From: Candidatus Saccharimonadota bacterium
GTDB lineage: Archaea > Nanohalarchaeota > Nanosalinia > Nanosalinales > Nanosalinaceae
Assembly: GCA_001761425.1 (NCBI GenBank)
Contig: CP012986.1
Location: 240,001-272,000 of the forward strand
DNA: 32,000 bases
Direction of reading: 5' to 3'
Shown here: positions 1-32,000 of the stretch, in pieces
Layout of the letters: each line of letters opens with the position of its first letter
How positions within the stretch are numbered: the first letter of the stretch is position 1
The notes under the pieces: model-generated
What the model was told of the DNA's origin: nothing
Databases searched by the model: none
What the model saw: only the letters and a program-made list of their open reading frames with translations
Translations under genes and position numbers: made by a program

Positions 1-209
1 TGAAAGCTCTCGGTAGAAACTATGCCGGCATCACGGAGATAAGCCACTTCGTTCGAGATATCTTCATCCAGCTCTGCCTTGATCTCCCTCAGTTCGAGAC
101 GGGGAGACCTGTCACTGTCCCGAAACTTGATCAACTCTTTTTGATCTCCTAGAGCAGCTACAACAGCACTCAAAGCACCGGTACGCAACTTTTTTTCACG
201 TTTCTCCAT
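1..209 (-). CDS. hypothetical protein, N-terminal ~69 codons only (continues past window start); possibly a small winged-helix-like DNA-binding protein
   Basis: The ATG at 209-207 directly follows the leuS stop (TAG, 212-210). The frame stays open to position 1 (MEKREKKLRTGALSAVVAALGDQKELIKFRDSDRSPRLELREIKAELDEDISNEVAYLRDAGIV...). I can name no diagnostic family motif. Confidence 0.4.
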   Translation of the reverse strand, partial: MEKREKKLRTGALSAVVAALGDQKELIKFRDSDRSPRLELREIKAELDEDISNEVAYLRDAGIVSTESF

Positions 210-2990
210 CTATTTGACCACTATCGCAGGCCTGCCAGGCTGAGCACGAGAGGCCTTATCCTCATCCGAGCTCTCCTCGCTTTCGACAGCGACTTCAACA
301 TCGAACTCATCCTCGAACCGTTCCTGGTTTAATTCGAGAGCCTCTTCCTCCAGGTCAAGGCCTGTGAAGTCTCTCCTGTAACTTCCAGGGTTTTCAACCG
401 CGTTGACAACTTCGTCATTGATTTGCTGTGCGTACTCCTGGAGATCCCCGTCAAGAACTTTATCCATGACTTCTCCTACATCTTTCGTACCCTGAATCGC
501 TTTAAGAATTTTCTCACCGGCTTTGTACTTCCAGTCTGAGGCCTTGATGATCTTCACCTTCTCAGGTTCTCCCTCGATCATGGCAACGATCTCACGGATG
601 TCAGAGGAGACACGGTCGAAGTAGGCGTCGATCTCTTCGGCTTCTTCATCGATAAGATCTTCATCGACTTCAGGCCAGTCTTCTTCGAGCATGAAGGCCT
701 CGTTGCCGATTCTATCCCAGAGCTCCTCGGTGATGTGAGGTGCATAGGGACTGAGAAGCTTCAGGAGTGTATTGATGCCGTGTGACAGGACTTTGTCTTT
801 TCCTCCCTGCTGTTCGTACCAGTAGAGCTTACTTAACAGGCGGTCGACTTCGTCGATAGCAAGATTGAAGTCATAATTCTCTGTATCTTTCGTGACTTTC
901 TCGATGGCTCTCTGAATCCTGGAGGCCATGATACGGTCGAAGAGTTCTGCATCCTCTAGAGAAGGCCTCTCATCTGTTAAGGCCTCTTCGTTTTCCTTTA
1001 CTATTCTTTCGACTCTCTCAAGCATTTCTTCGGCAGCTTCTACTCCTTCTTCGCTCCAGTCCAGTTCATTTGTAGGGCCTGAAGCTCTGAGGATGAAAAC
1101 TCTTGCCGTATCTGCTCCATGCTCCTCTACAAGCTCGGTTGGATCTACGACGTTGTGTTTGGACTTGGACATCTTCCTGACGTCGACTTCGACTTCTCTA
1201 CCGCATTTTTCACATATGTTTTCCTGTTCGACTTCTTCAGGGAAGATCCATCCGTGTTCAGGACAGTTGTACGCTGGATGGTTCACCATTCCGAGTGTCA
1301 GAAGTCTTTCGAACGGTTCGTCTTCTCCAAGCATGTCTTTGTCTCTGAGGAACTTTGTGAAAAAGCGTGCGTACAGTAGATGCATGACTGCATGTTCTAT
1401 GCCTCCGATGTACTGGTCGACGTTCATCCAGGAATTTGCGTCTTCGATATCGAACGGAGCTGTCTCAAGCTCTGGTGAGATGTATCTGAGGAAGTACCAG
1501 GAGCTTCCGATGAACGTATCCATGGTATCTGTCTCTTTTCTTGCGTCTCCGCCACATTCAGGGCATTCGACCTCCTTCCAGCTCTCGGACGTCTCAATAG
1601 GATTACCTGTCTCAGTAAACTCCACATCATCGGGAAGTTCGACAGGCAGATCTTCTTCAGGTACTTTGACTGTTCCACATTCATCGCAGTGGATCATAGG
1701 GATCGGCGTCCCCCAGTACCTCTGACGGGAGATCAGCCAGTCACGCAGCTGATAGTTCACATCGGCCTCTCCAAGGCCTTCATCATCTAGTTCTTCGATC
1801 ATCTTTTCGATAGCGTCCTCCTTTTTCAGGCCGTTTAACTCTCCAGAATTGATGTGTTTACCGTCGCCCTCGTATGCACCTTCCTCTTCATAGGAATGAT
1901 CTCCTGAAGGCCTAACTACTTCCTGAACTTCAATATCATGTTCCTGGGCGAACTCGAAGTCCCTCTGATCGTGAGCCGGGACCGCCATGATCGCTCCGGT
2001 ACCGTAATCAGTGAGTACGAACTCGGCAACGTAGATAGGGATCTTTTCTCCTGTAATAGGGTTTTCCGCGTATCTTCCTGTAAACACTCCTGCCTTTGAC
2101 TTTTCCTCACGGTCCTCAGTATCCCTCTTCAAGGCCTCTTCACGGTATTCTGCGACCTTGTCGTCTTCTTCAGCGATTTCTTCCGTTAATTCGTGTTCTG
2201 GCGCGAGAGCCATGAATGTTGCACCGTAGATCGTGTCAGGCCTTGTCGTGAATACCTCAAGGCTTCTATCTGATTCCTGTACCGGAAACTCGATCTTTGC
2301 CCCTGTGCTTTTGCCTATCCAGTTTTCCTGCATGTCTCGAACTTTGTCAGGCCATCCTTCAAGTTGCTCAAGATCTTCGAGAAGTTCATCTGCGTAATCT
2401 GTAATCTTGAGAAACCACTGTTCCATATCTTTCTGCTCTACAACGGAGTCACATCTCCAGCAGAGGCCTTCCTCTACCTGTTCGTCTGCTAGTACTGTTT
2501 CACAGCTTGGACACCAGTTAACTTTGGATTCTCCTCTGTATGCGAGCCCTTCGTCCAGCATCTGCTGGAAAATCCACTGGTTCCATTTGTAGTATTCAGG
2601 GTCGCAGGTCGCAACTTCGCGGTCCCAGTCGTATGAGAAGCCCAGTCTTTTGAGTTGGCCTCTCATGTTGTCTATACAGTCCCGTGTCCATTCCTCTGGA
2701 TCGACGTCTCGATCGATCGCTGCGTTTTCAGCTGGTAGCCCGAACGCGTCCCAACCCATAGGATGCATGACGTCGTAGCCCTGCATCCGTTTCATCCTCG
2801 CGGGTGCGTCGCCCAGGGAGAAGTTACGGACGTGTCCCATGTGCAGGTTGCCGGAAGGGTACGGAAACATCTCCAGTACGTAGTATTTCTCCGCGTCAGT
2901 TCTTTCCGTCGTGTGAACTTCTGCGTTTTCCCATTTTTCCTGCCATTTCTTCTCTATACTCGTAAGTCGGTCCGCAAATTCTCCGGTCAT
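210..2990 (-). CDS. leuS: leucyl-tRNA synthetase (class Ia aaRS, archaeal type)
   Basis: 926-aa ORF with the HIGH-type motif (PYPSGNLHMGHVRN), the KMSKS motif (RKMSKSKHN), Cys-rich zinc knuckles (CPSCETV...CWRCDS; CDECG...CPECG) and a CP1 editing region. Overall length and layout are typical of LeuRS. Confidence 0.95.
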   Translation of the reverse strand: MTGEFADRLTSIEKKWQEKWENAEVHTTERTDAEKYYVLEMFPYPSGNLHMGHVRNFSLGDAPARMKRMQGYDVMHPMGWDAFGLPAENAAIDRDVDPEEWTRDCIDNMRGQLKRLGFSYDWDREVATCDPEYYKWNQWIFQQMLDEGLAYRGESKVNWCPSCETVLADEQVEEGLCWRCDSVVEQKDMEQWFLKITDYADELLEDLEQLEGWPDKVRDMQENWIGKSTGAKIEFPVQESDRSLEVFTTRPDTIYGATFMALAPEHELTEEIAEEDDKVAEYREEALKRDTEDREEKSKAGVFTGRYAENPITGEKIPIYVAEFVLTDYGTGAIMAVPAHDQRDFEFAQEHDIEVQEVVRPSGDHSYEEEGAYEGDGKHINSGELNGLKKEDAIEKMIEELDDEGLGEADVNYQLRDWLISRQRYWGTPIPMIHCDECGTVKVPEEDLPVELPDDVEFTETGNPIETSESWKEVECPECGGDARKETDTMDTFIGSSWYFLRYISPELETAPFDIEDANSWMNVDQYIGGIEHAVMHLLYARFFTKFLRDKDMLGEDEPFERLLTLGMVNHPAYNCPEHGWIFPEEVEQENICEKCGREVEVDVRKMSKSKHNVVDPTELVEEHGADTARVFILRASGPTNELDWSEEGVEAAEEMLERVERIVKENEEALTDERPSLEDAELFDRIMASRIQRAIEKVTKDTENYDFNLAIDEVDRLLSKLYWYEQQGGKDKVLSHGINTLLKLLSPYAPHITEELWDRIGNEAFMLEEDWPEVDEDLIDEEAEEIDAYFDRVSSDIREIVAMIEGEPEKVKIIKASDWKYKAGEKILKAIQGTKDVGEVMDKVLDGDLQEYAQQINDEVVNAVENPGSYRRDFTGLDLEEEALELNQERFEDEFDVEVAVESEESSDEDKASRAQPGRPAIVVK

Positions 2991-3010
2991 AAAGCTCCTA
3001 TCGAATCCAA

Positions 3011-3020
3011 CTTATATCAA
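3011..3020 (-). promoter_or_regulatory. TATA-like box for leuS (TTGATATAAG on the minus strand)
   Basis: A/T-rich box centred about 26 nt upstream of the leuS ATG (2990), consistent with a leaderless transcript. Confidence 0.45.
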
Positions 3021-3061
3021 ATTAAGTTAGTGAAAGTGGAGAAGGTTGTTCCTCACTACTA

Positions 3062-3069: not shown

Positions 3070-3094
3070 GCTGAACCGCAACACTCATTATACA

Positions 3095-4692: not shown

Positions 4693-4700
4693 ATCGGGTA

Positions 4701-13905: not shown

Positions 13906-15051
13906 ATGAGGCCTTTATTTATAACCTGGGAGTATCCGCCTTACAAGGCCGGAGGTATAGCCGCGCACTGTGAAGATCTTGCTACGACCATGGCTGCCCA
14001 GGGACATGAGCCAGTTGTCATAACGTATGGAGATGAGAGAACCTGTGAAGTGAGGGATGGAGTACAAATTCAGAGAGTTCCGTCCACAGATTTTGCCACG
14101 AACACTCTTTCCTGGGCCATGCATCTCGGCCATGAGATGGAGAAGAAAGCTATTGAACTGCATAAACAGAATAACTTTGATCTGGTTCATGCACATGACT
14201 GGATGGCAGTTTCAGGTGCTACAGGCATAAAGAAGACTCTAGATCTTCCTATGGTTTTTACAGTTCATTCTACTCAGAAAGGAAGAGATGGAATAGGCTC
14301 TGAGTACCAGAAAACGATACACGATCTGGAATGGTATGGAACGTATGAAGCCGACGAGGTCATCACAGTAGGAAGAGAATTCTCAGAAGAGGTTAAACAT
14401 ACCTACGAGGTACCGGAGAACAAAATAAACTATATACCGAACGGCGTTGACCTGGAAAGATTTGACAGCCACTCAAAAGATCTCAACCGTAGAAACTACG
14501 CACTGGACTGGGAAAACATAGTACTGTTCGTCGGCCGCATGTACCCACAGAAAGGCCCGGGACACCTCATCGAAGCCATGCCACACATCCTGGATCAACA
14601 GCCAGAAGCCAAATTCGTGATGTGCGGATCAGGAGCCACAGAACACTACAAATCCATCGCGAAGAGCCAGGTCGGCGACAAAGTACACTTCCCAGGCTAC
14701 GTATCTGACAACGAACTCATGTCACTCATGAAAGAAGCAGCCATGACAGTCGCACCATCAGTATACGAACCATTCGGAATAGTCCCACTAGAAGCTGCAG
14801 CATCAGAAACAATGACAGTAGGAAGCTACACAGGAGGAATGAAAGACACAATAGTACATGAATACACAGGCCTTCACACATACCCGGCCGATCCAGGATC
14901 AATAACTGACCAGGTATCCAGAGGCCTTGAAGATCCCGGATGGGCTGACTGGATGGGAGACAACGCACGTGAACGCGTAGAAGACAATTTCCGCTGGGAA
15001 CAGATCTCCGCATGGACCACAGGAATCTACAACCAGGCCCTCGAAGAATAA
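13906..15051 (+). CDS. GT-B glycosyltransferase, GT4-like (glucan/maltose-1-phosphate synthase-like)
   Basis: N-terminal WEYPPYKAGGIAAH loop, HAHDW, and a C-terminal E-x7-E region (YEPFGIVPLEAAAS). Confidence 0.8.
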   Translation: MRPLFITWEYPPYKAGGIAAHCEDLATTMAAQGHEPVVITYGDERTCEVRDGVQIQRVPSTDFATNTLSWAMHLGHEMEKKAIELHKQNNFDLVHAHDWMAVSGATGIKKTLDLPMVFTVHSTQKGRDGIGSEYQKTIHDLEWYGTYEADEVITVGREFSEEVKHTYEVPENKINYIPNGVDLERFDSHSKDLNRRNYALDWENIVLFVGRMYPQKGPGHLIEAMPHILDQQPEAKFVMCGSGATEHYKSIAKSQVGDKVHFPGYVSDNELMSLMKEAAMTVAPSVYEPFGIVPLEAAASETMTVGSYTGGMKDTIVHEYTGLHTYPADPGSITDQVSRGLEDPGWADWMGDNARERVEDNFRWEQISAWTTGIYNQALEE

Positions 15052-15088
15052 GGCCTCAGATCTTCCACAAAGTCTACGTTTAAAGCTC

Positions 15089-15111: not shown

Positions 15112-15816
15112 CTAGAGCTGGCGGAGCCAGGCAAACATCATATCCCTCAACTTTTTCTCTCCTTCATCGCTCATGGAATGCTTCTCCCCCTCCAGTTTCT
15201 GAAGTAAAACATCGGTCTCAAAGGCCTCGGCAACTTCAGCAGAGTTCTCGAAATGGACTGTGGTGTCTGCTCCTCCATGGAATATAGCAACCGGAGCATC
15301 AAGGCCTGAAGCAACTTTTTCAAAGCTGTAAGTATCGAAATCTTCGAAGAAACGCCTGTCAATCGTTTTATCGCCGAAATGAGTATAACTGCCTTTCTCC
15401 TCCACTACTTCCCGGAACTTATCCATTATATGACTGTAGGTTACAGGAGACTTCAGGATCAAGGCCTCAACTTCCAGATCTTCTGTAGCATGTAAAACGA
15501 CTTTGCCTCCAAAGCTCATGCCGAACAGGTAGATATTTTCTGGGTTAAAAAAGTCTATACAGGCCTTTAAATCCTTTATACGTGAGCTGAGATCCTGGTC
15601 TATGAACTCGCCGTCGCTCTCGCCGTTTCCCCTGAAGTCAAGTCTGACGGCGTTGAATCCTTCTTTTACAGCTCTTTCAGACCTCTCCTCGTAGCTCCCT
15701 TCCTTGTCGCTTCCGTATCCGTGACAGAAAAAGACCCAGTTATCAGAATCAGCTTCGTGATGTACTGCAGAGATTTCCTCGCCGTCTTCAACCTCGATAA
15801 AATTTTTCTCCGTCAT
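15112..15816 (-). CDS. alpha/beta-fold hydrolase (serine hydrolase), copy 1
   Basis: Oxyanion region FFCHGYGS, nucleophile elbow GMSFGG, FHGGADTTV (Asp) and EKHSM (His). Paralog of the 19499-20275 gene. Confidence 0.75.
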   Translation of the reverse strand: MTEKNFIEVEDGEEISAVHHEADSDNWVFFCHGYGSDKEGSYEERSERAVKEGFNAVRLDFRGNGESDGEFIDQDLSSRIKDLKACIDFFNPENIYLFGMSFGGKVVLHATEDLEVEALILKSPVTYSHIMDKFREVVEEKGSYTHFGDKTIDRRFFEDFDTYSFEKVASGLDAPVAIFHGGADTTVHFENSAEVAEAFETDVLLQKLEGEKHSMSDEGEKKLRDMMFAWLRQL

Positions 15817-15841
15817 AACAGTTTATCGGACCTCGCTGTTT

Positions 15842-16783: not shown

Positions 16784-16790
16784 GTTTACT

Positions 16791-18008
16791 TTACCTTCTG
16801 TATCTTTTTTCTACCTGTTGCTGGAAGTCCATGAGGTGTTCTGTGATGACGGCGAATCCCTGATGTGGATGGTTGAAATACGAGAAGTAGTTGTGTACGC
16901 TGCCGTCTTCCATGGATTTGGTGGCGATATGGTGCAGGTGATCGCTTGTCAGGAACTTTCTCCAGACGTCTGTAACTTCCTCGTCGTCTATAGCCCTGAC
17001 TTTTTCCTCGATATCCTGAAGCCTCTGGAAAAGCATTTTCTGCATTTTGTTGCCGAGCCAGGCAGAGGCATCCATCTCCTGATCTGCCCATGAGACAGTA
17101 TTGTACTCGAAGGCATCGAACTTCCCGACAGGATCGCTGTTCTCTGCAATTTCTCTTACAGTGGAGAATTTCAGGTTATCGTGTTCGAAGACCTGCTGGG
17201 GTAGATCCTCCAGGAACCAGAGAATACCGGTCCCTTCCCAGTGATGCTCCCCGAACGTCTCGTAATCCATGAAAAGATTCAGCATATCGCCAGAAGCGTT
17301 CGAAAGCCATAGAGCGTACTTTTCCGCCGTCAACGGGTACTCATTCCACCACTCCGCAGAGAAACGGTAGCCGACGTCGTCCGTCAGTTTTCTGTTCCTC
17401 AATAAAATATTGTTCCCTTCCTCAGTCACGAAATCCGGCTGAGTATAGGCATGGTTCGGACTTCTCCAGCCTAACATCCTCGGAGCACCCTCCGTGAAAA
17501 TACCGTCGTAACCTTCCTCCGCAGCAACCTTTCCGATCTCATTATGGTAGATTAACTCTGTATTAGTCATGACCTGAGGCCTCCTACCGAAAGTATGCTC
17601 TATAATATCCCTATGCTTCCCTAACTGCCACCTGAATTCACTCTTGTCATGGAAAAGGCCTGAAAGCGAATGGTAATGTGTCTGACCGATGAAATCGACT
17701 GTCCCATCCGGAAACTGGTTCAGCATGTCGATAAGCTCTGGATGATACTTTTTCGCTTGTTCCACCCATGAACTCGAGATCGAGAAATTCACCTTGAACT
17801 CACGGTCCTCTCCCTCAAACTTCTTCGCATTCCTGAGAAGCCGTTCAGTCGCAGGGAAATAACAGTTCTCCGCGACATCCCTGAAAAAATGCTCGTTCAT
17901 CTCATCATCAAAATACCTTCCGTACAGGGTCGAGGCCTCCTCGTTAACGCCTTCTGTCCTCAAACGGTGAGGCTGATGTACCTCGAAGCTCAGGGATACG
18001 GGAAGCAT
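16791..18008 (-). CDS. glycoside hydrolase family 57 protein (alpha-glucan-active: amylase/branching/transferase type unresolved)
   Basis: N-terminal LSFEVHQPHRL (GH57 region I), GTVDFIGQTHYHS and MDYETFGEHHWEG blocks. ATG 18008 is preferred over the ORF-track GTG 18053 because the TATA box at 18031-18039 is centred 27 nt upstream. Confidence 0.8.
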   Translation of the reverse strand: MLPVSLSFEVHQPHRLRTEGVNEEASTLYGRYFDDEMNEHFFRDVAENCYFPATERLLRNAKKFEGEDREFKVNFSISSSWVEQAKKYHPELIDMLNQFPDGTVDFIGQTHYHSLSGLFHDKSEFRWQLGKHRDIIEHTFGRRPQVMTNTELIYHNEIGKVAAEEGYDGIFTEGAPRMLGWRSPNHAYTQPDFVTEEGNNILLRNRKLTDDVGYRFSAEWWNEYPLTAEKYALWLSNASGDMLNLFMDYETFGEHHWEGTGILWFLEDLPQQVFEHDNLKFSTVREIAENSDPVGKFDAFEYNTVSWADQEMDASAWLGNKMQKMLFQRLQDIEEKVRAIDDEEVTDVWRKFLTSDHLHHIATKSMEDGSVHNYFSYFNHPHQGFAVITEHLMDFQQQVEKRYRR

Positions 18009-18030
18009 GGATACAGATTCCAAGGCCTGA

Positions 18031-18039
18031 TTTATAACA
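18031..18039 (-). promoter_or_regulatory. TATA box (GTTATAAAT on the minus strand) for the GH57-kinase-hydrolase operon
   Basis: Centred 27 nt upstream of the ATG at 18008. Confidence 0.45.
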
Positions 18040-18085
18040 AGTCGTGTTGCCACGTAACGGGTAAAAGAAAAGGCCTTATACCAAG

Positions 18086-18094
18086 ATTAAAAAT
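18086..18094 (+). promoter_or_regulatory. TATA-like box (ATTAAAAAT) upstream of the small ORF
   Basis: Centred 27 nt upstream of the in-frame GTG at 18117. Confidence 0.3.
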
Positions 18095-18116
18095 CTACCA
18101 GTGGAAAATTACAACT

Positions 18117-18347
18117 GTGGAAGCTAAAATCACTGAGAAAAGTAACGGCCACCTGATCCGGATCAAAACAGACCAGGAAGTAGCATTAGCGGTTCAAAGC
18201 GAAGAAGGAGAGAGAATCTACCTTCCAGGAGAGGGAGGCTGCGATACAGCATACTACAGCGAAGACCCGACGTTTCTCACAGAGACAGAAAATGGCTACG
18301 CAGTTTTACATGAGGAAAGGCCTCAGAACATTGAAATAATCAATTAA
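18117..18347 (+). CDS. hypothetical small acidic protein (~76 aa)
   Basis: It is the only open frame filling the 331-nt gap 18009-18339 ((V/M)EAKITEKSNGHLIRIKTDQEVALAVQSEEGERIYLPGEGGCDTAYYSEDPTFLTETENGYAVLHEERPQNIEIIN). The composition is acidic like the rest of the proteome. The TATA-like box has leaderless spacing. The 3' end overlaps the convergent GT4 by 8 nt. The non-ATG start lowers confidence. Confidence 0.35.
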   Translation: MEAKITEKSNGHLIRIKTDQEVALAVQSEEGERIYLPGEGGCDTAYYSEDPTFLTETENGYAVLHEERPQNIEIIN

Positions 18348-19386
18348 CTTCTCTGTACAGCTCTACAAATTCTTCTGCCATTTCACTCCAGCTTCTTGAC
18401 TCGTATTCTGGCATCGGACCTTTTTCGACCGCGTTCTCAAGCCCCTGAGCAATCGAACCTGATTCAGGCCTTATCTCGGTTACAGCTTCAGTCTGGATCA
18501 GTTCGTTGACACCGCTTTCAGTCGCCAGAACTTGCGTACCGGATTCCAGAGCCTCTGTAATAGTCAGGCCGAACGGTTCGTTTATCGATGGCGAGACAAA
18601 GGCCTCAGCTTCTCTGTAGTAATCTCCAAGCTCTTTTGAGGGTATGAAACCTGTGAAATAGACTTTTCCATCAATGCCAAGTAATTCTGCAAAGTTTTCT
18701 AGAGGCCTTCTCAAGTGGCCGTCACCGCCGATGACCAGGGAAGCTTCGTTCCCGTTGTCAAGGAACTTTTTGAACCCGTAGAGAAGGTGTTCGATACCTT
18801 TCTGCTCTGCATGCCTCCCAACGAAAAATATCATATCCTCCTCGATATCTAACTCTTCTTTAACGTCTTTTCCAGTAGATGAGGGCTGCGAGAAGCCGTT
18901 GTAAATCACAGAGGCCTCCGCGCTGAACTTTCTCTCAAGGTCCTGTTTCAGGCCTTCGCTGACTGCTATAAGTTTATCAGGTTCTTCCGTTGCTACTTTT
19001 TCCAGTTTTTCGATCTTTTCCGATCCTGAATAAGTCCTGGATGAGGCCAGAGAATGTATAGTCGAGATCCAGGTTGTTTCAGAGTGTTTTGAGGTCTTGT
19101 ATCCTGCTTCTGCGCCGAACCAGTCGTTGGTATGTATTATGTCGAAATCCTGGGCTTTCTTCGCTATCTCTGCGCTCATCTTCCTGGCTTTCCATGTCAT
19201 ATCGCCGTCACCGGTCTCTACAGAGATTATATCCTCTCTTTCCGGCGCATTTTCCTCTGGTAGTGCCAGCTTCACGTCAAGGCCTTTCTTCTTCAGCTCC
19301 TGAAACAGGTGATATACATGGATGTCAAGGCCTCCCTCGATCTCTGGAGGGTAACCCCATCCTGTTAGAAGAATTTTCCTGTTCAT
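18340..19386 (-). CDS. GT-B glycosyltransferase, GT4-like, second copy
   Basis: N-terminal GWGYPPEIEGGLDIHV loop, HTNDW, and the C-terminal INEPFGLTITEALESG (E-x7-E) region. Confidence 0.8.
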   Translation of the reverse strand: MNRKILLTGWGYPPEIEGGLDIHVYHLFQELKKKGLDVKLALPEENAPEREDIISVETGDGDMTWKARKMSAEIAKKAQDFDIIHTNDWFGAEAGYKTSKHSETTWISTIHSLASSRTYSGSEKIEKLEKVATEEPDKLIAVSEGLKQDLERKFSAEASVIYNGFSQPSSTGKDVKEELDIEEDMIFFVGRHAEQKGIEHLLYGFKKFLDNGNEASLVIGGDGHLRRPLENFAELLGIDGKVYFTGFIPSKELGDYYREAEAFVSPSINEPFGLTITEALESGTQVLATESGVNELIQTEAVTEIRPESGSIAQGLENAVEKGPMPEYESRSWSEMAEEFVELYREVN

Positions 19387-19498
19387 CTTACTCTAGATTT
19401 CTTTACAGAGACTTCTTTTGAACTTTTCAAGGTCGTGTAGGCCTCTTTTTTGGATTGATAGATTTTTCGACTTCATGTAATTATCATGTATGTGTAGT

Positions 19499-20275
19499 TT
19501 AATTTTGTTTTCCGGTTTCTGGAGGCATTTCTTTTTCGAAAAATTCTACGGCGTATTCGGCGATTTTGTCCAGTTTTGTGTCGTAGCTGTGTGTAAGTCC
19601 TTCTACTTCTTTTAAATCAGCGTTTTCAAGTTTTTGAACTGCTTTTCTGGAGGCCTCAACAGGAACTACACTGTCTTCTGTTCCGTGGATGATTCTGACA
19701 GTGCATCTGGTCCCTGATAGAAGTTTTTCCTGATCCAGGTTTTCCTTTTGTCTGATTATTTCCTCATCTATCACGTATTTGTCTCTGACTCCTTTTTCTC
19801 TTGTTTTGGTCCAGTATCCGTTTTCTTCGAGTTCTCTCTGCTGTTTTTCTGTTAAACGGTCATCTGCGTAATCTGCGAGACTGTCTGTAACCGGCGAGGT
19901 CAGAAATATGGCTTCTACATCTTCAGAATTCCTGAGAGAGACTAGACCGCCCTGACTGTGTCCGTAGAGTCCAATATTATCGACTCCTCTGGACTCCAGG
20001 TATTCTCTGGCAACGCCTAGATCATGTACCTGTCTGTCAATTCTCAGCGGTTCGTCATCGCTTTCACCGCTTCCAGCGAAATCAAAAGCCAGGACGTTGT
20101 AGCCGGAACCGTTCAACTCTCTGGCGATAAAATCCAGGTAGCCCCACTCACTTTTATCTCCGGTATAACCGTGTGACAGGACTACTCCAGCATCTGAATC
20201 TGCTTTCCAGTAATTTCCTGTTAATTCCAGGTTTTCGCCGTCTTCTCTGGAGGTTTCAAACTTTACCTTTTCCAT
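19499..20275 (-). CDS. alpha/beta-fold hydrolase (serine hydrolase), copy 2
   Basis: VVLSHGYTGD, nucleophile elbow GHSQGG, IIHGTEDSVVP and GLTHSY. ATG 20275 (MEKVKFE...) is preferred. The ORF track extends to 20296. Confidence 0.75.
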   Translation of the reverse strand: MEKVKFETSREDGENLELTGNYWKADSDAGVVLSHGYTGDKSEWGYLDFIARELNGSGYNVLAFDFAGSGESDDEPLRIDRQVHDLGVAREYLESRGVDNIGLYGHSQGGLVSLRNSEDVEAIFLTSPVTDSLADYADDRLTEKQQRELEENGYWTKTREKGVRDKYVIDEEIIRQKENLDQEKLLSGTRCTVRIIHGTEDSVVPVEASRKAVQKLENADLKEVEGLTHSYDTKLDKIAEYAVEFFEKEMPPETGKQN

Positions 20276-25704: not shown

Positions 25705-28700
25705 TTAGAAGTAGTCGAGAACGTTTTCCCGGTCGAAGATGTTTTCCTCGCCGACCTGTTTCTTCAGTTTCTTCGCAGTCCTCTTTCCTATCAGCTTCTT
25801 CATTTTCTCGAACTCTACTTCACGTATATCTTCCTGATCTCTTACTCCGTGATCATGAAGTTTTCTAGCTCTTACGCGGCCGATCTGATCGTACTTTACA
25901 AGGCCTAGAAGCTCCTCCTTGATGCCGTGTTTCAGTCTCAGTCTTATCTTTTCCAGGTCCTGTCCAAGTTCGAGTTCTTTCATCCTGGCCAGTTCCTGTG
26001 CTCCGTACACCAGCCAGTCAGCGTTCCGCATCTTTGCGCGGATCCCTCCTGGTGCAGTACCGTACTCGTTCATTATTTTTTCCTCATCTTTCTCCCCGAT
26101 CCACGCTTTCATCATCATCGAGGTCTTTATCACACGCATGAAACGTTCATAGTCCACATCCCATTCTTCCGGAACCGATTCAAGAATGTATTTTTCAGCA
26201 TCCAGTAAGGCCTGTTCGATTTCAGTCCACTCCTCATCTCCCACACGCAGCAGAGGGTTCATCTCTGTAGTCCTCGAAAGCATGAACAGGTAGGAAATAG
26301 CCTTGTTTTCCTTTTCATCCTTCCTTCGCTCCTCCGCTGTCTGAAGACACTCCAGCATATGATGTGCGGAGTCAGGATCAATATAAAGCTCGGAGACCCG
26401 GTGACCGACCTTTGTCGCCTCCAGGGTATCTTCTTTCAAGAACTCGTAATCTCTCAAGGTCTTGACAACATCCTTGATAGTCTTCTCCACCTCGTACATA
26501 CCCGAAGACTCTCCAGAGTCCTCTGGTTCCGCAAACTGGTAGGCGTAAAACGTCTTCTTGTAAAAATTCACAAGCCCCTCCATTGTCGTGCAGAAGTTAG
26601 AAGCCACCAGAGAAAGCGTATGCATACGGAGGACAGGTTCAACAGCCAGCTTTGACTGGATACGCTCCGGCTCCCCCAGGATATACCTGTCCAGGATCTC
26701 TTCTTTCATACCGGGCTGTTTCGCGACAGAAATCGCCTCACCACGGTCATCGTACCTAGGCCTCCCGGCACGACCTGTCATCTGCTCGTATTCCAGGACC
26801 GGGATAAAATCCATGCCGTTGCCTGTATAACGCTTCAGGTCACGGATTATAACCCGGAAAGCAGGAAGATTAACGCCAGCAGCGAGTGTAGGTGTCGCTG
26901 AGACGCTTTTTATCAGGCCTTTGCGGAAAGCCTCTTCCACTAGATTTCTCTGTTCTGTGGTATTGTGTGCTATTATCCCGTTGGCTATGAAGTTTTCTGT
27001 GGAGGTGCTGATATCGTACAGTTTTTCTGGTTCTTTTTCCTCTATTTCAGCAATTTTATCCCAGAAAATATCGGAGTTTGCTATTTTCTGGAGTTCTTTA
27101 CTTTCAAGTTTCTCTGCTAGTTTCTGAAATGTTTCTCTCCTTATCGGCTTCTTTTGGTTCTCGAACCTTGATACTGTAGCCTTTGATAGTTCAGGTTCAA
27201 GGTCTAAAAGGCTAAGACCCTGATTGTTTCTTTCTTTTCTTACTCTAGTGCCAAGTGTTTCAGGTATCACATCGTTCTGTTTTCTTCCTCCTTCAGGATT
27301 TATTTCTAGGGCTTTTTCGAGCTTTGATCTTTTCACTGGATGTGTGAAACCTATCTTTTCTTGGTACTTCCTGATTTGATCAGAACCGTATATTTTAAGC
27401 CGGTGAATATCTCCGTTTGAAGTAATTTTGTGTTCTCCTATCTCTGTCTCTCGTCCTTCTGTTTCTCTCCTGTCTCTGTGAGCGTTTATTTCTAATCTGA
27501 GGAGGGACGTATGTAGTTCGGTGGCAAGCTGCTTGCTTGCGGTGTAAAACTCGATGCAGGAAGCTCCTTCGGCATTCCTTCGGCAATTAACGGAACCGTC
27601 TGTGTCAAAGAGACCTCTGATATACGACGCCAGAAGCTCATCCGGAAGGCCTTTCTCTGGCATCTTGAGATTCAGAGCTTTCTTCCCTCTTGGTATTCCA
27701 AAGTGATCGTTTAAAATATCGGATACTGCTTTGGAGCTGAAATGACAGGTTTTAACTTCGTCTTTTGTTCTTTTGGTGACTGAGACATCTTTCTCAAATT
27801 TCTCTTTTGTTACTTCCTGGTATCTTTCCAGAACTGTTTCTTCGCTTCCGCTCAGGTTTATCCTGCTTGATTTTATATAACCGTCTCCCGCTACAGCACC
27901 AATCAGCCAGGCCAAGTCTTTATCCAGTTTTTCAGGTATCTTAACAGGTTTCCGCCCGGCTTTGGACATCACTGTGTCAAGATACTGGTCTGGATCTTCT
28001 CCTATCTTTTCACATATCTCTCTCAGACCGCCAACTGAAATGTTCCTATCATCTCCATATCTTTTCCGGAAATTCTGTTCAAGGCCTTCAGTATCGATGT
28101 CTTTAACTAATCTATCTATTTCACTATACTTTCTGTATGTCCTTACTTCATCTCTAAGCAGTTTTCTCAATTTCGGAGCCTCAATATCTACTTTAATCTC
28201 TCTAGGCGTCGCTATTCTCTCGTTTTCACGTAGGTTCTTCGCCTTCCTCCAGATCAGACCTTCTTCATCAAGTACGGGAAGCTGATGGCTCTTGCTAACC
28301 TTCAATTCCCTACCTCTCCCAGTTCTAATCTTTAAAACTGGTTTTTCGTTCATTTCATACTTTTCCAGTATCTCATTATCTGCTAAACTATAGTCTGAGA
28401 GGCCTATAGCACTTTCCTTCTCGTTATCCACGAGTTCATCCATCCTGGAAAAACTGCCGTCATCATGCATAATTACAGAATCTCCCGAAACACAGAGCCC
28501 TGCGTGGTGGAAAGCCGCTCCTTTCCTGACATTTTCCGCCAAACGTTCACATTGAGACGTTGGATTCCCCAGAACGTTCAGAATTTTTTCGGAGTATTCT
28601 TTCAGTTCCTTTCTCTCATCTCTGGAGAGTTCTGGTTCAACGACTTTTCCCGCTCTGTCCGAGGCCTTTTCCGCTCCTTTCCTTGATGAGCAGAAGGTGA

Positions 28701-29538
28701 TGGCCTGTTTATCTTTACTGAGAGTATCTTCGATTACGTTCAGTGTTCCACGGCCGTGTTCATCCTCTAACTCGACGATCTCGGATTCTTCCTCGATTTC
28801 ATCCTCCTTCTCCTTTATCTCTGTTCCTCTGGACCAGCCGTCAGGAGTCTCAAGATCAGAGTTCTCAGGTTTCTCATAGCCGTCAGGATAAAACTCTATT
28901 TCACTGTCCCAGTAAACGCCGTGGGAAAGATCTACAGGCCTGTAATCGCTTTCTACAAGCTCTGCGCCCAGCCAGTCCGCCAACTGATCAGAGTTAGATA
29001 TCGTGGCCGATAGACCAAGGAGCTGGAAATCAAGTAATTCACGCAGTCTGGTAATCGTCACTTCAAGCGTAGGCCCTCTGCTCTCCGATGTCAAAAGATG
29101 TATCTCATCCACTACTACAAGGCCTATCTCGCTGATCCACGAAGGATTATGCCGGAGCATCGAATCCAGCTTTTCAGACGTCACAACCACTATATCAGCG
29201 GTCTCAAGGCCTTTACCCTTATCATCCAGATCTCCAACCGAAATCCTGACATCCAGGTCCCCATATCTCTCAGAAAAATCCTCATACTTCTCACTGGCCA
29301 AGGCCTTCAACGGAACAATATACACCGCCGTCTTACCGTTTTCCTTAACCTGGTTGACCATCGCAAGCTCCGCAATAAAAGTCTTGCCTGAAGCAGTAGG
29401 AGAAGCCACAATCATATCCTCACCCTCCATAAGGCCTTGATCAACCGCCATCCTCTGGGGAGGATTCAACTCGGTGATGCCTGAAGACACATAATCCTCC
29501 TCTATACGCTCCGGCAGATCCAGGTTTGAAACTTTCAC
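25705..29538 (-). CDS. hel308: Hel308/Ski2-like DNA helicase interrupted by one intein (extein about 766-785 aa)
   Basis: Walker A ASPTASGKTFIAE, DEIH box VVVDEIHLL, LGLSAT, AFHHAGL|intein|TTEQRNLVEEAFRKGLIKSVSATPTLAAGVNLPA and QMTGRAGRP. The C-terminal winged-helix/ratchet/HhH region ends ...GIKEELLGLVKYDQIGRVRARKL. The start is either GTG 29538 (MKVSNLDLPERIEE..., typical Hel308 N-terminus) or ATG 29595 (ORF track). Confidence 0.9.
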   Translation of the reverse strand: MKVSNLDLPERIEEDYVSSGITELNPPQRMAVDQGLMEGEDMIVASPTASGKTFIAELAMVNQVKENGKTAVYIVPLKALASEKYEDFSERYGDLDVRISVGDLDDKGKGLETADIVVVTSEKLDSMLRHNPSWISEIGLVVVDEIHLLTSESRGPTLEVTITRLRELLDFQLLGLSATISNSDQLADWLGAELVESDYRPVDLSHGVYWDSEIEFYPDGYEKPENSDLETPDGWSRGTEIKEKEDEIEEESEIVELEDEHGRGTLNVIEDTLSKDKQAITFCSSRKGAEKASDRAGKVVEPELSRDERKELKEYSEKILNVLGNPTSQCERLAENVRKGAAFHHAGLCVSGDSVIMHDDGSFSRMDELVDNEKESAIGLSDYSLADNEILEKYEMNEKPVLKIRTGRGRELKVSKSHQLPVLDEEGLIWRKAKNLRENERIATPREIKVDIEAPKLRKLLRDEVRTYRKYSEIDRLVKDIDTEGLEQNFRKRYGDDRNISVGGLREICEKIGEDPDQYLDTVMSKAGRKPVKIPEKLDKDLAWLIGAVAGDGYIKSSRINLSGSEETVLERYQEVTKEKFEKDVSVTKRTKDEVKTCHFSSKAVSDILNDHFGIPRGKKALNLKMPEKGLPDELLASYIRGLFDTDGSVNCRRNAEGASCIEFYTASKQLATELHTSLLRLEINAHRDRRETEGRETEIGEHKITSNGDIHRLKIYGSDQIRKYQEKIGFTHPVKRSKLEKALEINPEGGRKQNDVIPETLGTRVRKERNNQGLSLLDLEPELSKATVSRFENQKKPIRRETFQKLAEKLESKELQKIANSDIFWDKIAEIEEKEPEKLYDISTSTENFIANGIIAHNTTEQRNLVEEAFRKGLIKSVSATPTLAAGVNLPAFRVIIRDLKRYTGNGMDFIPVLEYEQMTGRAGRPRYDDRGEAISVAKQPGMKEEILDRYILGEPERIQSKLAVEPVLRMHTLSLVASNFCTTMEGLVNFYKKTFYAYQFAEPEDSGESSGMYEVEKTIKDVVKTLRDYEFLKEDTLEATKVGHRVSELYIDPDSAHHMLECLQTAEERRKDEKENKAISYLFMLSRTTEMNPLLRVGDEEWTEIEQALLDAEKYILESVPEEWDVDYERFMRVIKTSMMMKAWIGEKDEEKIMNEYGTAPGGIRAKMRNADWLVYGAQELARMKELELGQDLEKIRLRLKHGIKEELLGLVKYDQIGRVRARKLHDHGVRDQEDIREVEFEKMKKLIGKRTAKKLKKQVGEENIFDRENVLDYF
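26962..28494 (-). mobile_element. intein (511 aa) with a LAGLIDADG homing-endonuclease domain and an XRE-type HTH
   Basis: I mapped the junctions codon by codon. Cys1 (TGT) is at 28494-28492, right after HHAGL. The terminal His-Asn is ...GIIAHN, with Asn at 26964-26962, and the +1 residue is Thr at 26961-26959. A block B-like motif is KVSKSH. The two LAGLIDADG motifs are LAWLIGAVAGDGYI and LASYIRGLFDTDGSV. Removing the intein restores the canonical AFHHAGL-TTEQRNLVEEAF. Confidence 0.9.
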
Positions 29539-29574
29539 AGAAAAAAATACGGCTGAAACCTTATGTTTCAAACC
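29523..29574. repeat. perfect 10-bp inverted repeat (GGTTTGAAAC ... GTTTCAAACC) with a 32-nt spacer bracketing the candidate GTG start of hel308
   Basis: Read directly from the sequence: 29523-29532 is the reverse complement of 29565-29574. Confidence 0.6.
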
Positions 29575-29847
29575 CGATACCACAAACCTACACAAACACC
29601 TTCAAACATTCACGTAAAAAAGAGGCCAAAATCAGATCAAGAAAGGAAAAAACCCACGCTAAGGCCTTCGCACAACATGTATCCTCCGCTCCACACTTTC
29701 TACATCTGAAAAAGGTATGTAACAGTTTATCACATATCCAATATCACCTTAGGGGGAGACAAGTGAAAAAGTCAGATTCAACTAATTATTTTCATCCCAC
29801 ATATTCATCTAAAACCCTTTCTAACCACACAAACTCGGATTCCGACC

Positions 29848-29855
29848 GGAGGTGA
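29848..29855 (+). promoter_or_regulatory. strong Shine-Dalgarno sequence GGAGGTGA
   Basis: 8-nt match to the complement of the conserved 16S rRNA 3' end, 8 nt upstream of the ATG at 29864. Confidence 0.6.
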
Positions 29856-29863
29856 AATTTAAT

Positions 29864-31186
29864 ATGAAAGAACACGCAAAAAAGGCCTTGAAACACGACT
29901 TTGAAGTCGCAGGCAAGACCATTCCAACACTCGCAGTAATAGCACTCCTATTCGTAGGAACAGGATCAGCAGCACTACTGAGCAGCTTCGGAACAGTTTC
30001 AGGTACAGCAGATGTAGATCAGGCAGTAGAGCTTACTGGAGGTTCTGACTTCAGCTTCGATACCAACCAGGCTGGAGAGACAGTAATCGAGACAAGAACT
30101 CTACAGAGCAACGCAGATGTCTCTACACAGATCGGATTCGAGACAACCTGTAATGGCACTACTGAAACTACAAACCCTGCGGACTTCAGCGGAGATTGTA
30201 AAGGAATCGACACACGGTACGTCGAGTACTTTGACGATGCAGGACATGAATTTAGTGATTATAGTCATCAATCAGGAACTCCAGTAACCTCTGACCTTCA
30301 AACTGCAATTAACAAAGCATCGTCAGGAGACGTCCTAGTTGTAGAAGAAAATGGAGGCTACAATAATGTAACAGTCAACAAGTCTATAACTATTGTAGCT
30401 AAGAATCAGGGAGGTCCAACTGTTGATGGATTCGACATTAGTGCCAGTGACGTAACTGTCAAAGGTTTCAACATCACCGATGGATTTGAGGCCCAAAACT
30501 CTGGAAACTTTGTAGGAGTCAGAGTAAACAATGACGGCGACAATGCCGTTATTACCCACAACCACATCCACGGTATCAGTGGTTCTGGAGCGACGAAGGG
30601 AGTTCAGGTATTCCGGGGCGACGCAGCAGTTAGAAATAACCACATTGAAGGAATTGAATCGACAGGAAGTGGTGCTTATGGGGTACTGGTTCAGCACGAC
30701 TCAAAAGATGCGACTGTGTCTCAGAACACTGTTGAAGGAGTAAACGGTGTCTGGGCTTTCGGAGTTGATATTGATGATGCAGCGACAGGTGACGGAACGA
30801 CTGGATCGCCAAGCAATGCGTTGGTAGAGTACAACCACATTGACACAGTTACAGGGGATAGTTACCTTGGAACTGCAGTAGGTGTAGAAGCTGCAGCTTC
30901 ACCGGTCGATGTTCAAAACAACATCATGCTGACCGCAAGTGACATAGAGAGCAAGAACGATGTCACTGTGAACGCTAGCAACAACTGGTTTGGAACCGAC
31001 GGCATCAATCTAGATCAACAGGATTCAAGCACCATAGATGCCTCATGGGCTGACGCAGACACAACAGTTGAAGCTAACTCTGATGACAAGTTCGGTATTG
31101 TCAACGAGTTCGCTATCAATCTCAAGCCTGACACTTACAGCTTGACTACAAGCATCACTGCAGCAGGAGCTGAAGAAACGCCTTAA
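29864..31186 (+). CDS. secreted/surface protein with right-handed parallel beta-helix (PbH1) repeats
   Basis: N-terminal hydrophobic segment (IPTLAVIALLFVGTG) followed by SAALLSSFGTVSGTADV. Repeated about 22-25-aa units follow (ITHNHIHGISGSG / VRNNHIEGIESTG / VSQNTVEGVNGV / VEYNHIDTVTGD / VQNNIM). The composition is Thr/Asn/Gly/Val-rich. ATG 29864 is preferred over the ORF-track GTG 29852 because of the SD spacing. Confidence 0.75.
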   Translation: MKEHAKKALKHDFEVAGKTIPTLAVIALLFVGTGSAALLSSFGTVSGTADVDQAVELTGGSDFSFDTNQAGETVIETRTLQSNADVSTQIGFETTCNGTTETTNPADFSGDCKGIDTRYVEYFDDAGHEFSDYSHQSGTPVTSDLQTAINKASSGDVLVVEENGGYNNVTVNKSITIVAKNQGGPTVDGFDISASDVTVKGFNITDGFEAQNSGNFVGVRVNNDGDNAVITHNHIHGISGSGATKGVQVFRGDAAVRNNHIEGIESTGSGAYGVLVQHDSKDATVSQNTVEGVNGVWAFGVDIDDAATGDGTTGSPSNALVEYNHIDTVTGDSYLGTAVGVEAAASPVDVQNNIMLTASDIESKNDVTVNASNNWFGTDGINLDQQDSSTIDASWADADTTVEANSDDKFGIVNEFAINLKPDTYSLTTSITAAGAEETP

Positions 31187-31189
31187 TTT

Positions 31190-31214
31190 CCCTCTCTTTT
31201 TTATTTTTGAGAGG
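31190..31214 (+). terminator. hairpin plus oligo-T terminator after the beta-helix gene
   Basis: CCTCTC (31191-31196) pairs with GAGAGG (31209-31214) around the loop TTTTTTATTTTT. It begins 4 nt after the TAA stop. Confidence 0.5.
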
Positions 31215-31321
31215 CTCGGCGAACCGCAAGGTTTGACCGGTTTAGAAAACCTGCAAAGGTTTTCGTGTGAGCGGTGCTGGTGTCTTTGTCCGGTGTTCGA
31301 TTCCCGGAGCCGCTTTCAATC

Positions 31322-31789
31322 ATGAAGTATGCAAAAATCCTGGCAGTTTTCGCAGCACTAGCCCTAGCCGGAGCAGGTTCAGCAACCTTGCTGAATAGTT
31401 TTGGTACGATCAGTGGTACTGCTGATGTTAGGCCTGCTTTGAATATTACGGATGTAGGTAATGTTTCGAATGAGGAGGAGTATGTTAATCTGACTAGTCA
31501 GACTTCTGTTTCGGTTGATATTTCGCATCTAAGTATCGCTGATGAAGGAGGAAGTTATGATGTGTTAAATAATTCTGAGAACAGTGTTGTTGAGTTAGGT
31601 GAGAAGGTTGTAGTTACAGATAATTCTGTCTCGACCTCTGAAGTTGAGTCGTGGTTTGGAACTTCGGTACTGCATCTTACAACTGACGATAGTGCTATAG
31701 GTGCAGGCCTTAATCAGAATGTCGATACTGTTTATCTCAAAATCGATGACACAGTTGTAGATTCTTTCAGTTATGGTGATTCATCATGA
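31322..31789 (+). CDS. secreted protein with a lamin-tail-domain (LTD)-like C-terminal domain
   Basis: Signal-like N-terminus MKYAKILAVFAALALAGAG followed by SATLLNSFGTISGTADV. The remainder fits the LTD pattern (EEEYVNLTS...VDISHLSIADEGG...VELGEKVVVTDN...GLNQNVDTVYLKIDDTVVDSFSYGD). ATG 31322 is preferred over the ORF-track start at 31274. Confidence 0.65.
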   Translation: MKYAKILAVFAALALAGAGSATLLNSFGTISGTADVRPALNITDVGNVSNEEEYVNLTSQTSVSVDISHLSIADEGGSYDVLNNSENSVVELGEKVVVTDNSVSTSEVESWFGTSVLHLTTDDSAIGAGLNQNVDTVYLKIDDTVVDSFSYGDSS

Positions 31790-32000
31790 ATAAGAAGCTA
31801 TTATTGACGGCCTTTGTCTTGATGTTGGTGTCTGGTGTTTCTGCTCAGTCGCTTCAGGGTTTTGAGTACAGTCCTGGGAATGGTTTTGAGAGGGGTTTGA
31901 CAGGTGGGGAGAGTTTCAGTCAGACAGTTAATTTTTCGAGTGTGGCTGGTCAGGAAGTTCCTTTCGGTGTAAAGGTTATTGTTGAGAACGATTCTACGGA
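31786..32000 (+). CDS. secreted hypothetical protein, N-terminal 71 codons (runs off window end)
   Basis: The ATG at 31786 forms an ATGA overlap with the preceding stop. It has a classical Sec-type signal (MNKKLLLTAFVLMLVSGVSA/QS). I checked by hand that the frame stays open to the window end. Confidence 0.6.
   Translation, partial: MNKKLLLTAFVLMLVSGVSAQSLQGFEYSPGNGFERGLTGGESFSQTVNFSSVAGQEVPFGVKVIVENDST

Follow-up and report, generated by a model that had tools for sequence, protein, structure and literature searches.

The hexamer AGGCCT is a highly iterated palindrome-type element in a nanohaloarchaeon

Why should one six-base palindrome recur every few hundred bases along an archaeal chromosome, and at what level is it favoured? 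We examined a 32,000-bp stretch of nanohaloarchaeal DNA (CP012986.1, positions 240,001–272,000; hereafter the window), for which an earlier reading, made from the sequence only, had estimated about 125 copies of AGGCCT. An exact search found 126 (one per 254 bp, 2.4% of bases), close to that estimate rather than far below about 100. In cyanobacteria, hyper-abundant palindromes were recognised in the 1990s, and their cause, biased repair or selection, is debated. HIP1 (GCGATCGC), the highly iterated palindrome (HIP) of cyanobacteria, was reportedly described by Robinson et al. in 1995, and was later studied by Elhai (2015; PMC4390886) and by Xu, Lawrence & Durand (2018; PMC5861425).

AGGCCT has the features of such an element. 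It is the top-ranked palindrome with an observed/expected ratio (o/e) above 15, occurs in all frames and in non-coding DNA, belongs to no longer repeat, is lineage-specific, and is shared between genomes more often than control words. It is a HIP-type element in a nanohaloarchaeon (DPANN), and so a second instance of a hyper-abundant palindrome, in another domain of life, with a different word and at a higher density. Literature searches returned no report of an AGGCCT excess in nanohaloarchaea or in any archaeon; it is apparently an undescribed archaeal counterpart of the cyanobacterial HIPs.

The exact hexamer is favoured at the DNA level

AGGCCT is the commonest of all 4096 hexamers in the window (3.9 per kb) and has the highest o/e (18.6); the next-ranked hexamers, AAGGCC and GGCCTT, are its own overlaps. 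Dinucleotide-preserving shuffles (n = 100) contained a mean of 7.8 copies (sd 2.6, maximum 15), and Markov models of orders 0–3 predicted 6.8, 8.0, 21.5 and 55.4, the first of these agreeing with the 6–7 copies and the roughly 19-fold excess calculated in the sequence-only reading. The Markov comparison proposed there gave a divided result: orders 0–3 fall far below 126, but the maximal-order (order-4) model predicts 112, nominally near the observed count. The order-4 null is circular because AGGCCT itself accounts for 81% of the AGGCC and 87% of the GGCCT pentamers, and we ruled it out as an explanation. Relative to nulls based on composition or dinucleotides AGGCCT is 16- to 19-fold in excess, and relative to codon-preserving nulls ~8-fold.

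The favoured unit is the complete hexamer. The bias noted earlier in the flanks of GGCC was confirmed, 126 of the 202 GGCC tetramers in the window (62%) being flanked by A and T against ~7% expected, and o/e climbs as the word is assembled (GGCC, 2.1; AGGCC, 6.5; GGCCT, 5.3; AGGCCT, 18.6). GGCC outside the hexamer is not enriched in the window (76 copies vs ~90 expected). The window is 100% identical to positions ~238,963–270,962 of JGI 3300010222 contig Ga0136257_100001 (1,125,078 bp), and over 51.6 kb of this source contig the density was 3.86/kb (199 sites), alike in nearly all 48 open reading frames (ORFs). Extrapolated from this stretch, the genome would contain ~4,300 sites.

With 27 genes delimited from the ORF list and Pfam matches, 96% of the sites in the window lie within genes, and 18, 50 and 53 sites fall in codon phases 0, 1 and 2, respectively, with five outside or across gene calls. 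All three phases had been claimed for leuS, and the examples are correct on the minus strand: 963–968 (phase 0; AGG CCT, Arg-Pro), 980–985 (phase 1; GAG GCC TTA, Glu-Ala-Leu) and 1774–1779 (phase 2; nnA GGC CTn, x-Gly-Leu). Non-coding DNA (~1.5–1.7 kb) contains 3–5 sites, vs ~0.4 expected. Four non-coding sites had been named, of which two are plainly intergenic: 19439–19444, between a gene ending at 19386 and a gene starting at 19499, and 29662–29667, 67 nt upstream of the start of a Hel308-type helicase gene. The other two need correction, as 15051–15056 overlaps the last stop-codon base of a GT4 glycosyltransferase gene (13906–15051) and the spacer after it, and 18071–18076, between a GH57 gene and a short DUF7510 ORF, is intergenic with a 76-aa call for that ORF and coding with a 123-aa call. 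A further site at 18318 lies between our gene calls, yet within the DUF7510 ORF annotated by public gene calls.

Synonymous-codon shuffling, the other null that had been proposed, did not reproduce the excess: with proteins and pooled codon usage kept (n = 300), shuffled genes contained 15.5 ± 3.5 sites (maximum 25), whereas the real coding sequence has 122. Since the motif itself inflates codon usage, the null errs on the conservative side. We then defined an opportunity as a place where the protein sequence permits AGGCCT, that is, Arg-Pro, [K/E/Q]-Ala-[F/L/S/Y/C/W/stop] or x-Gly-Leu. Of 165 such synonymous opportunities in the window, 122 (74%) are occupied, including every Arg-Pro dipeptide in its genes (18/18), 50 of the 71 [K/E/Q]-Ala-[F/L/S/Y/C/W/stop] contexts and 54 of the 76 x-Gly-Leu contexts.

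The flanks had been described as often A upstream and T or C downstream, with no longer consensus, which agrees with our counts: a purine (R) is present at −1 in 76% of sites (T in only 6–9%) and a pyrimidine (Y) at +1, and beyond ±1 no base exceeds 37% at any position of the symmetrised profile. We conclude that AGGCCT is not embedded in any longer dispersed repeat. Occupancy barely varies with the −1 base (62% vs 73%), and on our own reading of the occupancy table we attribute the −1/+1 bias to Glu/Lys-rich codon context, not to a longer motif. The preferred adjoining base differs by lineage: AAGGCCTT leads in the window clade (the window, L001, L002 and L007; 29 copies) and GAGGCCTC in L005 (24 copies), which L223 resembles by its commonest hexamers (GGCCTC, 58; GAGGCC, 49). 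Either Lys/Glu usage or truly different extended specificities may underlie this preference.

The presence of the motif in three phases and in non-coding DNA, the codon-shuffle null, the saturation of opportunities and the lack of the motif in sister-lineage orthologues (see below) establish a DNA-level pressure on AGGCCT, and not a codon, dipeptide or composition artefact, as had been proposed from the window itself. The pressure acts genome-wide, regardless of position, frame, gene or strand.

Distribution among nanohaloarchaea and imprint on proteins

We compared syntenic loci among ~35 nanohaloarchaeal contigs and ~55 others retrieved with the same protein profile. AGGCCT density is bimodal among the nanohaloarchaeal loci. 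Thirteen are rich, with 2.1–5.0 sites/kb [L001, L002, L005, L006 (M3_22, CP046106.1), L007, L142, L145, L146, L151, L154, L161, L221 and L223 (Ca. Nanosalina sp. VS9-1, CP180230.1; 4.4/kb)]. Poor loci, with 0–0.45 sites/kb, comprise L003, L004, L008, L009, L137–L141, L143, L144, L147–L150, L152 and L222 (Ca. Nanohalobium constans LC1Nh, CP040089.1; 0.09/kb). L153 (LFCJ01000384.1) is intermediate at 0.94/kb, and L163 (1.5 kb, 2 sites) is too short to class. No AGGCCT-rich contig was present among the ~55 non-nanohaloarchaeal contigs, and no substitute palindrome was found in the AGGCCT-poor relatives.

At least four nanohaloarchaeal clades are AGGCCT-rich, and they are interleaved with clades at chance level. 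In a concatenated-protein neighbour-joining tree (up to 6,685 columns, 200 bootstraps), all five shallow clades tested had 100% bootstrap support, three of them uniformly rich or uniformly poor in their classed loci, and the rich taxa were monophyletic in 0/200 bootstraps. The rich pair L006 + L007 is sister to the poor pair L004 + L009 (94.5% support), and rich L146, intermediate L153 and poor L150, L147, L149 and L152 form one clade (92.5% support). From this topology we infer at least three or four changes of state. The excess is a labile trait of particular lineages: sister nanohaloarchaea can differ in whether it is switched on.

L146 and L150 were considered as a recent rich/poor pair and rejected, as their amino-acid identity is only 65% and their divergence is not recent; L146 and L153 form a useful pair. 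The L004 contig (GenBank JBLGBK010000002.1) is labelled 'MAG: Colwellia polaris', yet its gene content, synteny and 64–89% protein identity to the window are nanohaloarchaeal, and it probably comes from a mis-binned or mislabelled metagenome-assembled genome (MAG). In pooled loci (the window and L001–L009; small counts), CCTAGG, the word with the half-sites of AGGCCT swapped, has an o/e of 0.19 in rich vs 0.96 in poor genomes, and other CTAG-containing hexamers are depleted in both pools; GGGCCT/AGGCCC shows the opposite trend (1.75 rich vs 0.32 poor; small counts).

The comparison with related genomes that had been proposed was made on codon-aligned orthologous genes. Opportunities are occupied at 61–77% in rich genomes (VS9-1, 86/116) and at 4–16% in poor ones (LC1Nh, 2/48). 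At the AGGCCT positions of the window, poor genomes carry the motif in 2–6% of cases and usually differ at 2–3 of the 6 bases; the sites were therefore not built on pre-existing near-sites. Taken as odds, the difference in occupancy (~0.74/0.26 vs ~0.07/0.93) would correspond to a ~40-fold boost, or to a scaled advantage of ~3.6 in mutation-selection-drift terms.

The proteins themselves differ. Over the same aligned codons, the window has 86, 93 and 83 permissive peptides where three poor relatives have 44, 45 and 48, respectively (binomial p = 3e-4, 5e-5 and 3e-3), and is similar to the other rich genomes. Typical replacements toward permissive peptides are KSL to KAL, ESF to EAF, and xGI, xGM or xGF to xGL. 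AGGCCT pressure has thus reshaped amino-acid sequences, and since permissive peptides are approximately doubled, it overrides weak purifying selection on proteins.

Rich genomes share sites with the window more often than they share control hexamers (L001, 60% vs 20%; L005, 41% vs 11%; L221, 73% vs 31%). Among opportunities shared by the window and L005, however, 31 are occupied in both, 5 and 8 in one only and 4 in neither, and ~29 occupied in both are calculated under independence. Because co-occupancy is close to that of independent filling, sharing between rich genomes reflects saturation and not needed positions.

Turnover of sites is ongoing. A strain 97.7% identical over 21 kb (L010/L012) has 87 sites in common with the window, and 3 are present only in the window and 4 only in the strain; all seven differences are single-base changes, six of them transitions. 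Bases differ at 1.2% of positions inside sites vs 2.3% elsewhere. Unoccupied opportunities in rich genomes are one (82), two (47) or three (27) bases from the motif, and transitions away from the motif make up 65% of the one-off variants, a profile as expected of a balance between mutation and pressure. L153 looks like a lineage caught during decay of the motif after the pressure was relaxed: its occupancy is 27%, 44% of its opportunities are one-off relics of every kind, and it lies at 18% amino-acid distance from rich L146.

Possible causes of the excess

The nearest known parallel is HIP1. Both are short GC-rich palindromes and the most over-represented word of their genomes, both are dispersed in non-coding DNA and in all frames of coding DNA without a longer repeat, and within a phylum both occur in many lineages but are missing from the rest. 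Sites of both are common to genomes more often than control words, which for AGGCCT saturation alone can account for, and biased repair and selection have both been proposed as the cause. AGGCCT differs in being a hexamer with A/T ends in an archaeon, HIP1 being an octamer in a bacterium, in lacking a GATC or CGATCG core, and in its density (3.9–5 per kb, vs ~0.5–2.5 per kb quoted by Elhai), and Elhai's mechanism relies on MutS/MutL-type mismatch repair. HIP1 is periodic at 10–90 kb (Xu et al., 2018; PMC5861425).

Alternate cyanobacterial HIPs are closer in form: GGCGCC in Calothrix PCC 7103 (o/e 15.5 for the related Calothrix D253), rCCGGy and GCsGC (PMC4390886). Like AGGCCT they are sporadic and lineage-specific, replace HIP1 and include a plain hexamer with a similar o/e. 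They differ in being confined to single genomes of a HIP1-bearing phylum, whereas AGGCCT is the sole such word in its group, recurs in at least four clades and has no substitute in poor relatives. Each alternate HIP was tied by Elhai to a methyltransferase able to modify it; none has been found yet for AGGCCT. CAGGCCTG, an octamer that contains AGGCCT, is over-represented in Synechococcus PCC 6312 (PMC5861425).

Our leading explanation, tentatively held, is that AGGCCT alleles become fixed because an enzyme, probably a methyltransferase, biases mismatch repair or gene conversion. The AGGCCT-rich lineages would carry a StuI-type sequence-specific enzyme with AGGCCT as its recognition site, the most plausible candidate being a DNA methyltransferase, orphan or derived from a restriction-modification (R-M) system, that is gained and lost horizontally. 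With the full hexamer marked or bound, mismatch repair or gene conversion between chromosome copies would be biased to the AGGCCT allele, so that new AGGCCT alleles would be preferentially fixed and decayed ones restored, a molecular drive akin to Elhai's ratchet model for cyanobacterial HIPs. Density would settle where mutation and drive balance, and on loss of the enzyme the sites would decay to chance level.

A mobile Type II-like enzyme is suggested because a 6-bp palindrome is read as a unit and because the trait comes and goes among sister clades. Type IIP enzymes archetypally target contiguous 6-bp palindromes, and a pattern of gain and loss is typical of mobile R-M or methyltransferase genes. 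We favour a methyltransferase-linked bias because AGGCCT-specific systems exist and because of Elhai's methyltransferase correlate in cyanobacteria, where all genomes rich in a palindrome of this kind also encode a methyltransferase capable of modifying it, for which Elhai proposed a methylation-directed repair ratchet (PMC4390886). Enzymes that read exactly AGGCCT, the specificity of StuI-type Type IIP systems, exist and are mobile; one such system methylates AgGCcT in Alcanivorax borkumensis SK2, whose whole genome has 1674 AGGCCT motifs (PMC12128166). The likeness to Type IIP systems ends with the frequency of the site, as R-M sites are usually avoided and AGGCCT is 18-fold over-represented. 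At ~0.5 per kb, estimated from genome size and GC content, the Alcanivorax motif is modestly above expectation.

Several observations weigh against this explanation. The search that had been proposed for a methyltransferase or Vsr-like gene came up empty: in ~52 kb of the source genome and the syntenic pieces of relatives, no gene for a methyltransferase, a nuclease or a Vsr/Mig-type enzyme emerged from regular expressions and phmmer with M.HaeIII, and a C5-methyltransferase hidden Markov model built from 120 sequences had no match among all ORFs of 669 kb of nanohaloarchaeal loci. No R-M genes were found in this DNA either, a difference from the StuI-type systems. In a database search with M.HaeIII (a query matching a database entry at 99%), the best 120 matches were all close relatives, the few named ones bacterial, which leaves nanohaloarchaeal enzymes out of reach. 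Active R-M systems normally cause avoidance of their sites, not excess (PMC4390886), and the only published nanohaloarchaeal methylome, that of Ca. Nanohalococcus SVXNc, which may or may not be AGGCCT-rich, shows GDGcHC and not AGGCCT (PMC10266531, PMC11001535). The reduced divergence within sites between the two close strains is modest and not significant at this depth (synonymous third positions, 2.8% inside vs 4.6% elsewhere; p = 0.36). One-step deamination neighbours are not depleted (AGGTCT/AGACCT, o/e 1.42 rich vs 1.65 poor; AGGCTT/AAGCCT, 1.50 rich vs 1.15 poor) and are the commonest relics at opportunities, AGGTCT foremost. Among position-4 variants at x-Gly-Leu opportunities that lack the motif, AGGTCT accounts for 19 of 31 in rich vs 6 of 23 in poor genomes, a comparison confounded by codon usage, which gives a weak hint that the first C is hypermutable, perhaps methylated.

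In its strongest form, possible though doubtful, the explanation would have a single mobile AGGCCT-reading enzyme (or pair) driving DPANN genomes, with ~4,000 positions of a 1.1-Mb genome rewritten, amino acids included, and decaying on loss of the gene; alternatively, AGGCCT would be a new archaeal chromosome-organisation code. If true, AGGCCT drive would be a first mechanistic handle on the 30-year-old HIP1 problem. The comparison is tractable, with genomes of ~1 Mb (~1,000 genes) and a trait that flips between sister clades, and since complete rich (VS9-1, M3_22, Ga0136257_100001) and poor (LC1Nh) genomes exist, the causal gene should be identifiable by presence/absence. AGGCCT-poor LC1Nh is in co-culture (PMC9765267). 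StuI and HaeIII are predicted to fragment the DNA of rich genomes extremely, or to fail on it if the sites are methylated. For other purposes, the density of AGGCCT offers a strong signature by which to bin nanohaloarchaeal contigs, and possibly their mobile elements, and to assign hosts, and the excess biases codon-usage, dN/dS and protein-evolution analyses in these lineages. Among the matches listed in a scan of IMG/VR for three clustered AGGCCT copies, we found tandem repeats or chance clusters and none at nanohaloarchaeal density. Two of the IMG/VR contigs (L017 and L088; GC 36%) are low-GC viral contigs with another repeated element around TTAAGGCC(T).

The main rival, a serious one though we consider it less likely, is that selection keeps the sites and biased repair does not create them: an abundant dimeric protein found in some lineages only (nucleoid-associated, condensin-loading or the like) would bind AGGCCT, and cells would gain from having many sites overall. 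Retention of sites between rich genomes exceeds that of control hexamers 3–4-fold, but saturation explains it, co-occupancy being approximately independent. Amino-acid replacements are tolerated to host the motif, and the lack of depletion among one-off neighbours fits a requirement for the perfect site alone. Spacing is approximately exponential (mean 252 bp; coefficient of variation, 0.89) and slightly more even than Poisson (per-kb variance/mean 0.85; Kolmogorov–Smirnov p = 0.036), as a binding site might be; the long gaps nonetheless fit an exponential distribution, the largest being 1547 bp vs ~1200 bp calculated for 125 exponential gaps of this mean. This maximum is due to the only long AGGCCT-poor stretch, a gene for a secreted or surface protein (29852–31186, plus strand) that has just 3 permissive contexts and a single site over 1.3 kb. 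Selection and a role in chromosome structure were argued for HIP1 by Xu et al. (PMC5861425). A core chromatin function would not be expected to flip at least three to four times, with complete decay and no replacement palindrome. Contiguous 6-bp palindromes are, moreover, unusual for nucleoid proteins.

Uptake or self-recognition is improbable. Import, transfer or recombination machinery that prefers AGGCCT DNA would raise the motif through biased uptake and recombination, as for the uptake signal sequences (USS) of Haemophilus and the DNA uptake sequences (DUS) of Neisseria. Those words resemble AGGCCT in their lineage-specific, dense, genome-wide accumulation by drive in all frames and in their footprint on encoded peptides. 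They are, however, 9–12 nt long, non-palindromic, present about once per kb and tied to competence machinery, and AGGCCT is a 6-bp palindrome without an extended consensus, a unit that gives little specificity. In favour of uptake, nanohaloarchaea live as symbionts in contact with other cells and exchange material with them (PMC11001535).

Very improbable is that very-short-patch-type repair alone is responsible, with a GGCC or AGGCCT m5C methyltransferase and a Vsr- or Mig-like T:G enzyme that over-corrects T to C in near-cognates. Precedents are Dcm/Vsr of E. coli (CCWGG vs CTWGG) and the GGCC methyltransferase and Mig.MthI glycosylase of Methanothermobacter, an archaeal example in which, as in the former, methyltransferase-linked, context-specific repair shifts oligonucleotide frequencies. 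Those effects are less than two-fold, come with depletion of the T variants and cannot fix the outer A/T. Four of the seven strain differences are C/T or G/A changes at inner C positions, as such repair would produce, but the depletion of AGGTCT and AGGCTT implied by the simplest methylation-linked repair, one of the causes first suggested, is not seen, and GGCC without A...T flanks is not enriched. All 18 Arg-Pro dipeptides use CCT and never CCC, CCA or CCG, which C-to-T correction cannot yield. Simple T:G correction of the Vsr or Mig type does not suffice, given that T-containing neighbours are not depleted and that the outer A/T and the inner bases are fixed with equal strength.

That the excess is a compositional, codon-pair or amino-acid artefact, or comes from a dispersed mobile repeat containing AGGCCT [a repetitive extragenic palindromic (REP) element or a miniature inverted-repeat transposable element (MITE)], can be dismissed, as its one support, the order-4 expectation, is circular, codon-preserving shuffles fall far short, the sites span all phases, lie mostly within genes yet also in non-coding DNA, show no flank conservation and are lacking in sister-lineage orthologues, and the sequence is identical in independent JGI, ENA and Logan assemblies.

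Sites and genes of the window and its relatives

In the window, AGGCCT starts at positions 228, 251, 358, 539, 695, 963, 980, 1774, 1908, 2132, 2238, 2464, 3349, 3454, 3486, 3826, 4127, 4313, 4416, 4641, 5254, 5299, 5427, 5658, 5740, 6315, 6402, 6476, 7004, 7084, 7625, 7667, 7857, 8031, 8191, 8416, 8461, 8689, 8702, 9100, 9262, 9403, 9466, 9776, 9988, 10665, 10779, 11216, 11304, 11670, 12244, 12469, 12560, 13001, 13119, 13382, 13909, 14868, 14922, 15051, 15222, 15302, 15462, 15561, 15852, 16071, 16196, 16310, 16360, 16759, 17577, 17656, 17933, 18023, 18071, 18318, 18466, 18600, 18703, 18912, 18950, 19280, 19328, 19439, 19651, 20366, 20618, 20870, 21127, 21166, 21466, 21692, 21761, 21905, 22130, 22500, 22588, 22817, 23044, 23111, 23302, 23349, 23637, 23939, 24193, 24533, 25061, 25183, 25460, 25901, 26208, 26758, 26915, 27647, 28082, 28400, 28662, 28936, 29120, 29207, 29301, 29432, 29662, 29883, 31430 and 31705.

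Genes of the window include those for an ADP-dependent kinase, an archaeal Hel308 with an intein, a GH57 protein, glycogen synthase and a class I FBP aldolase. By the relatives of its glycogen synthase, the window belongs to the Nanohaloarchaeota. A glycogen/gluconeogenesis block (~3000–25700), syntenic across all nanohaloarchaeal loci examined (L001–L009, L222 and L223), includes genes for PGM, the ADP-dependent kinase, TIM, a debranching enzyme, glycogen synthase, GT4 transferases, GH57, GAPDH, the class I aldolase and FBPase. The leucyl-tRNA synthetase gene at one end of the window (210–2990, minus strand) matches the Pfam PF13603 LeuRS editing-domain model, which we take to be characteristic of bacterial-type LeuRS, and this suggests an old horizontal acquisition of leuS in this archaeal lineage.

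The Hel308-type helicase gene (25705–29595, minus strand) encodes a ~505-aa intein (aa ~374–878) with LAGLIDADG homing-endonuclease and helix-turn-helix (HTH) domains; AGGCCT opportunities are occupied at 3/9 in the intein and 10/16 in the exteins (few sites). Beyond it, the AGGCCT-poor gene at 29852–31186 and its neighbour at 31274–31789 (both plus strand) encode acidic secreted or surface proteins with a common N-terminal motif, ...LL(S/N)SFGT(V/I)SGTADV, after a hydrophobic stretch, and the product of the second carries a lamin-tail domain.

In LC1Nh (L222, CP040089.1) the syntenic block contains an insertion (15661–19024 of the locus) in which a reverse transcriptase (RVT_1) is accompanied by a bAvd-like protein and an FGE-sulfatase-fold gene, a layout that resembles a diversity-generating retroelement; ParE and TumE genes are also present there. 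On the source contig, ~5 kb past the end of the window (L016, 15417–20468), a giant ORF encodes a 4,057-aa product and contains 15 AGGCCT sites in the 5 kb seen, a normal density.

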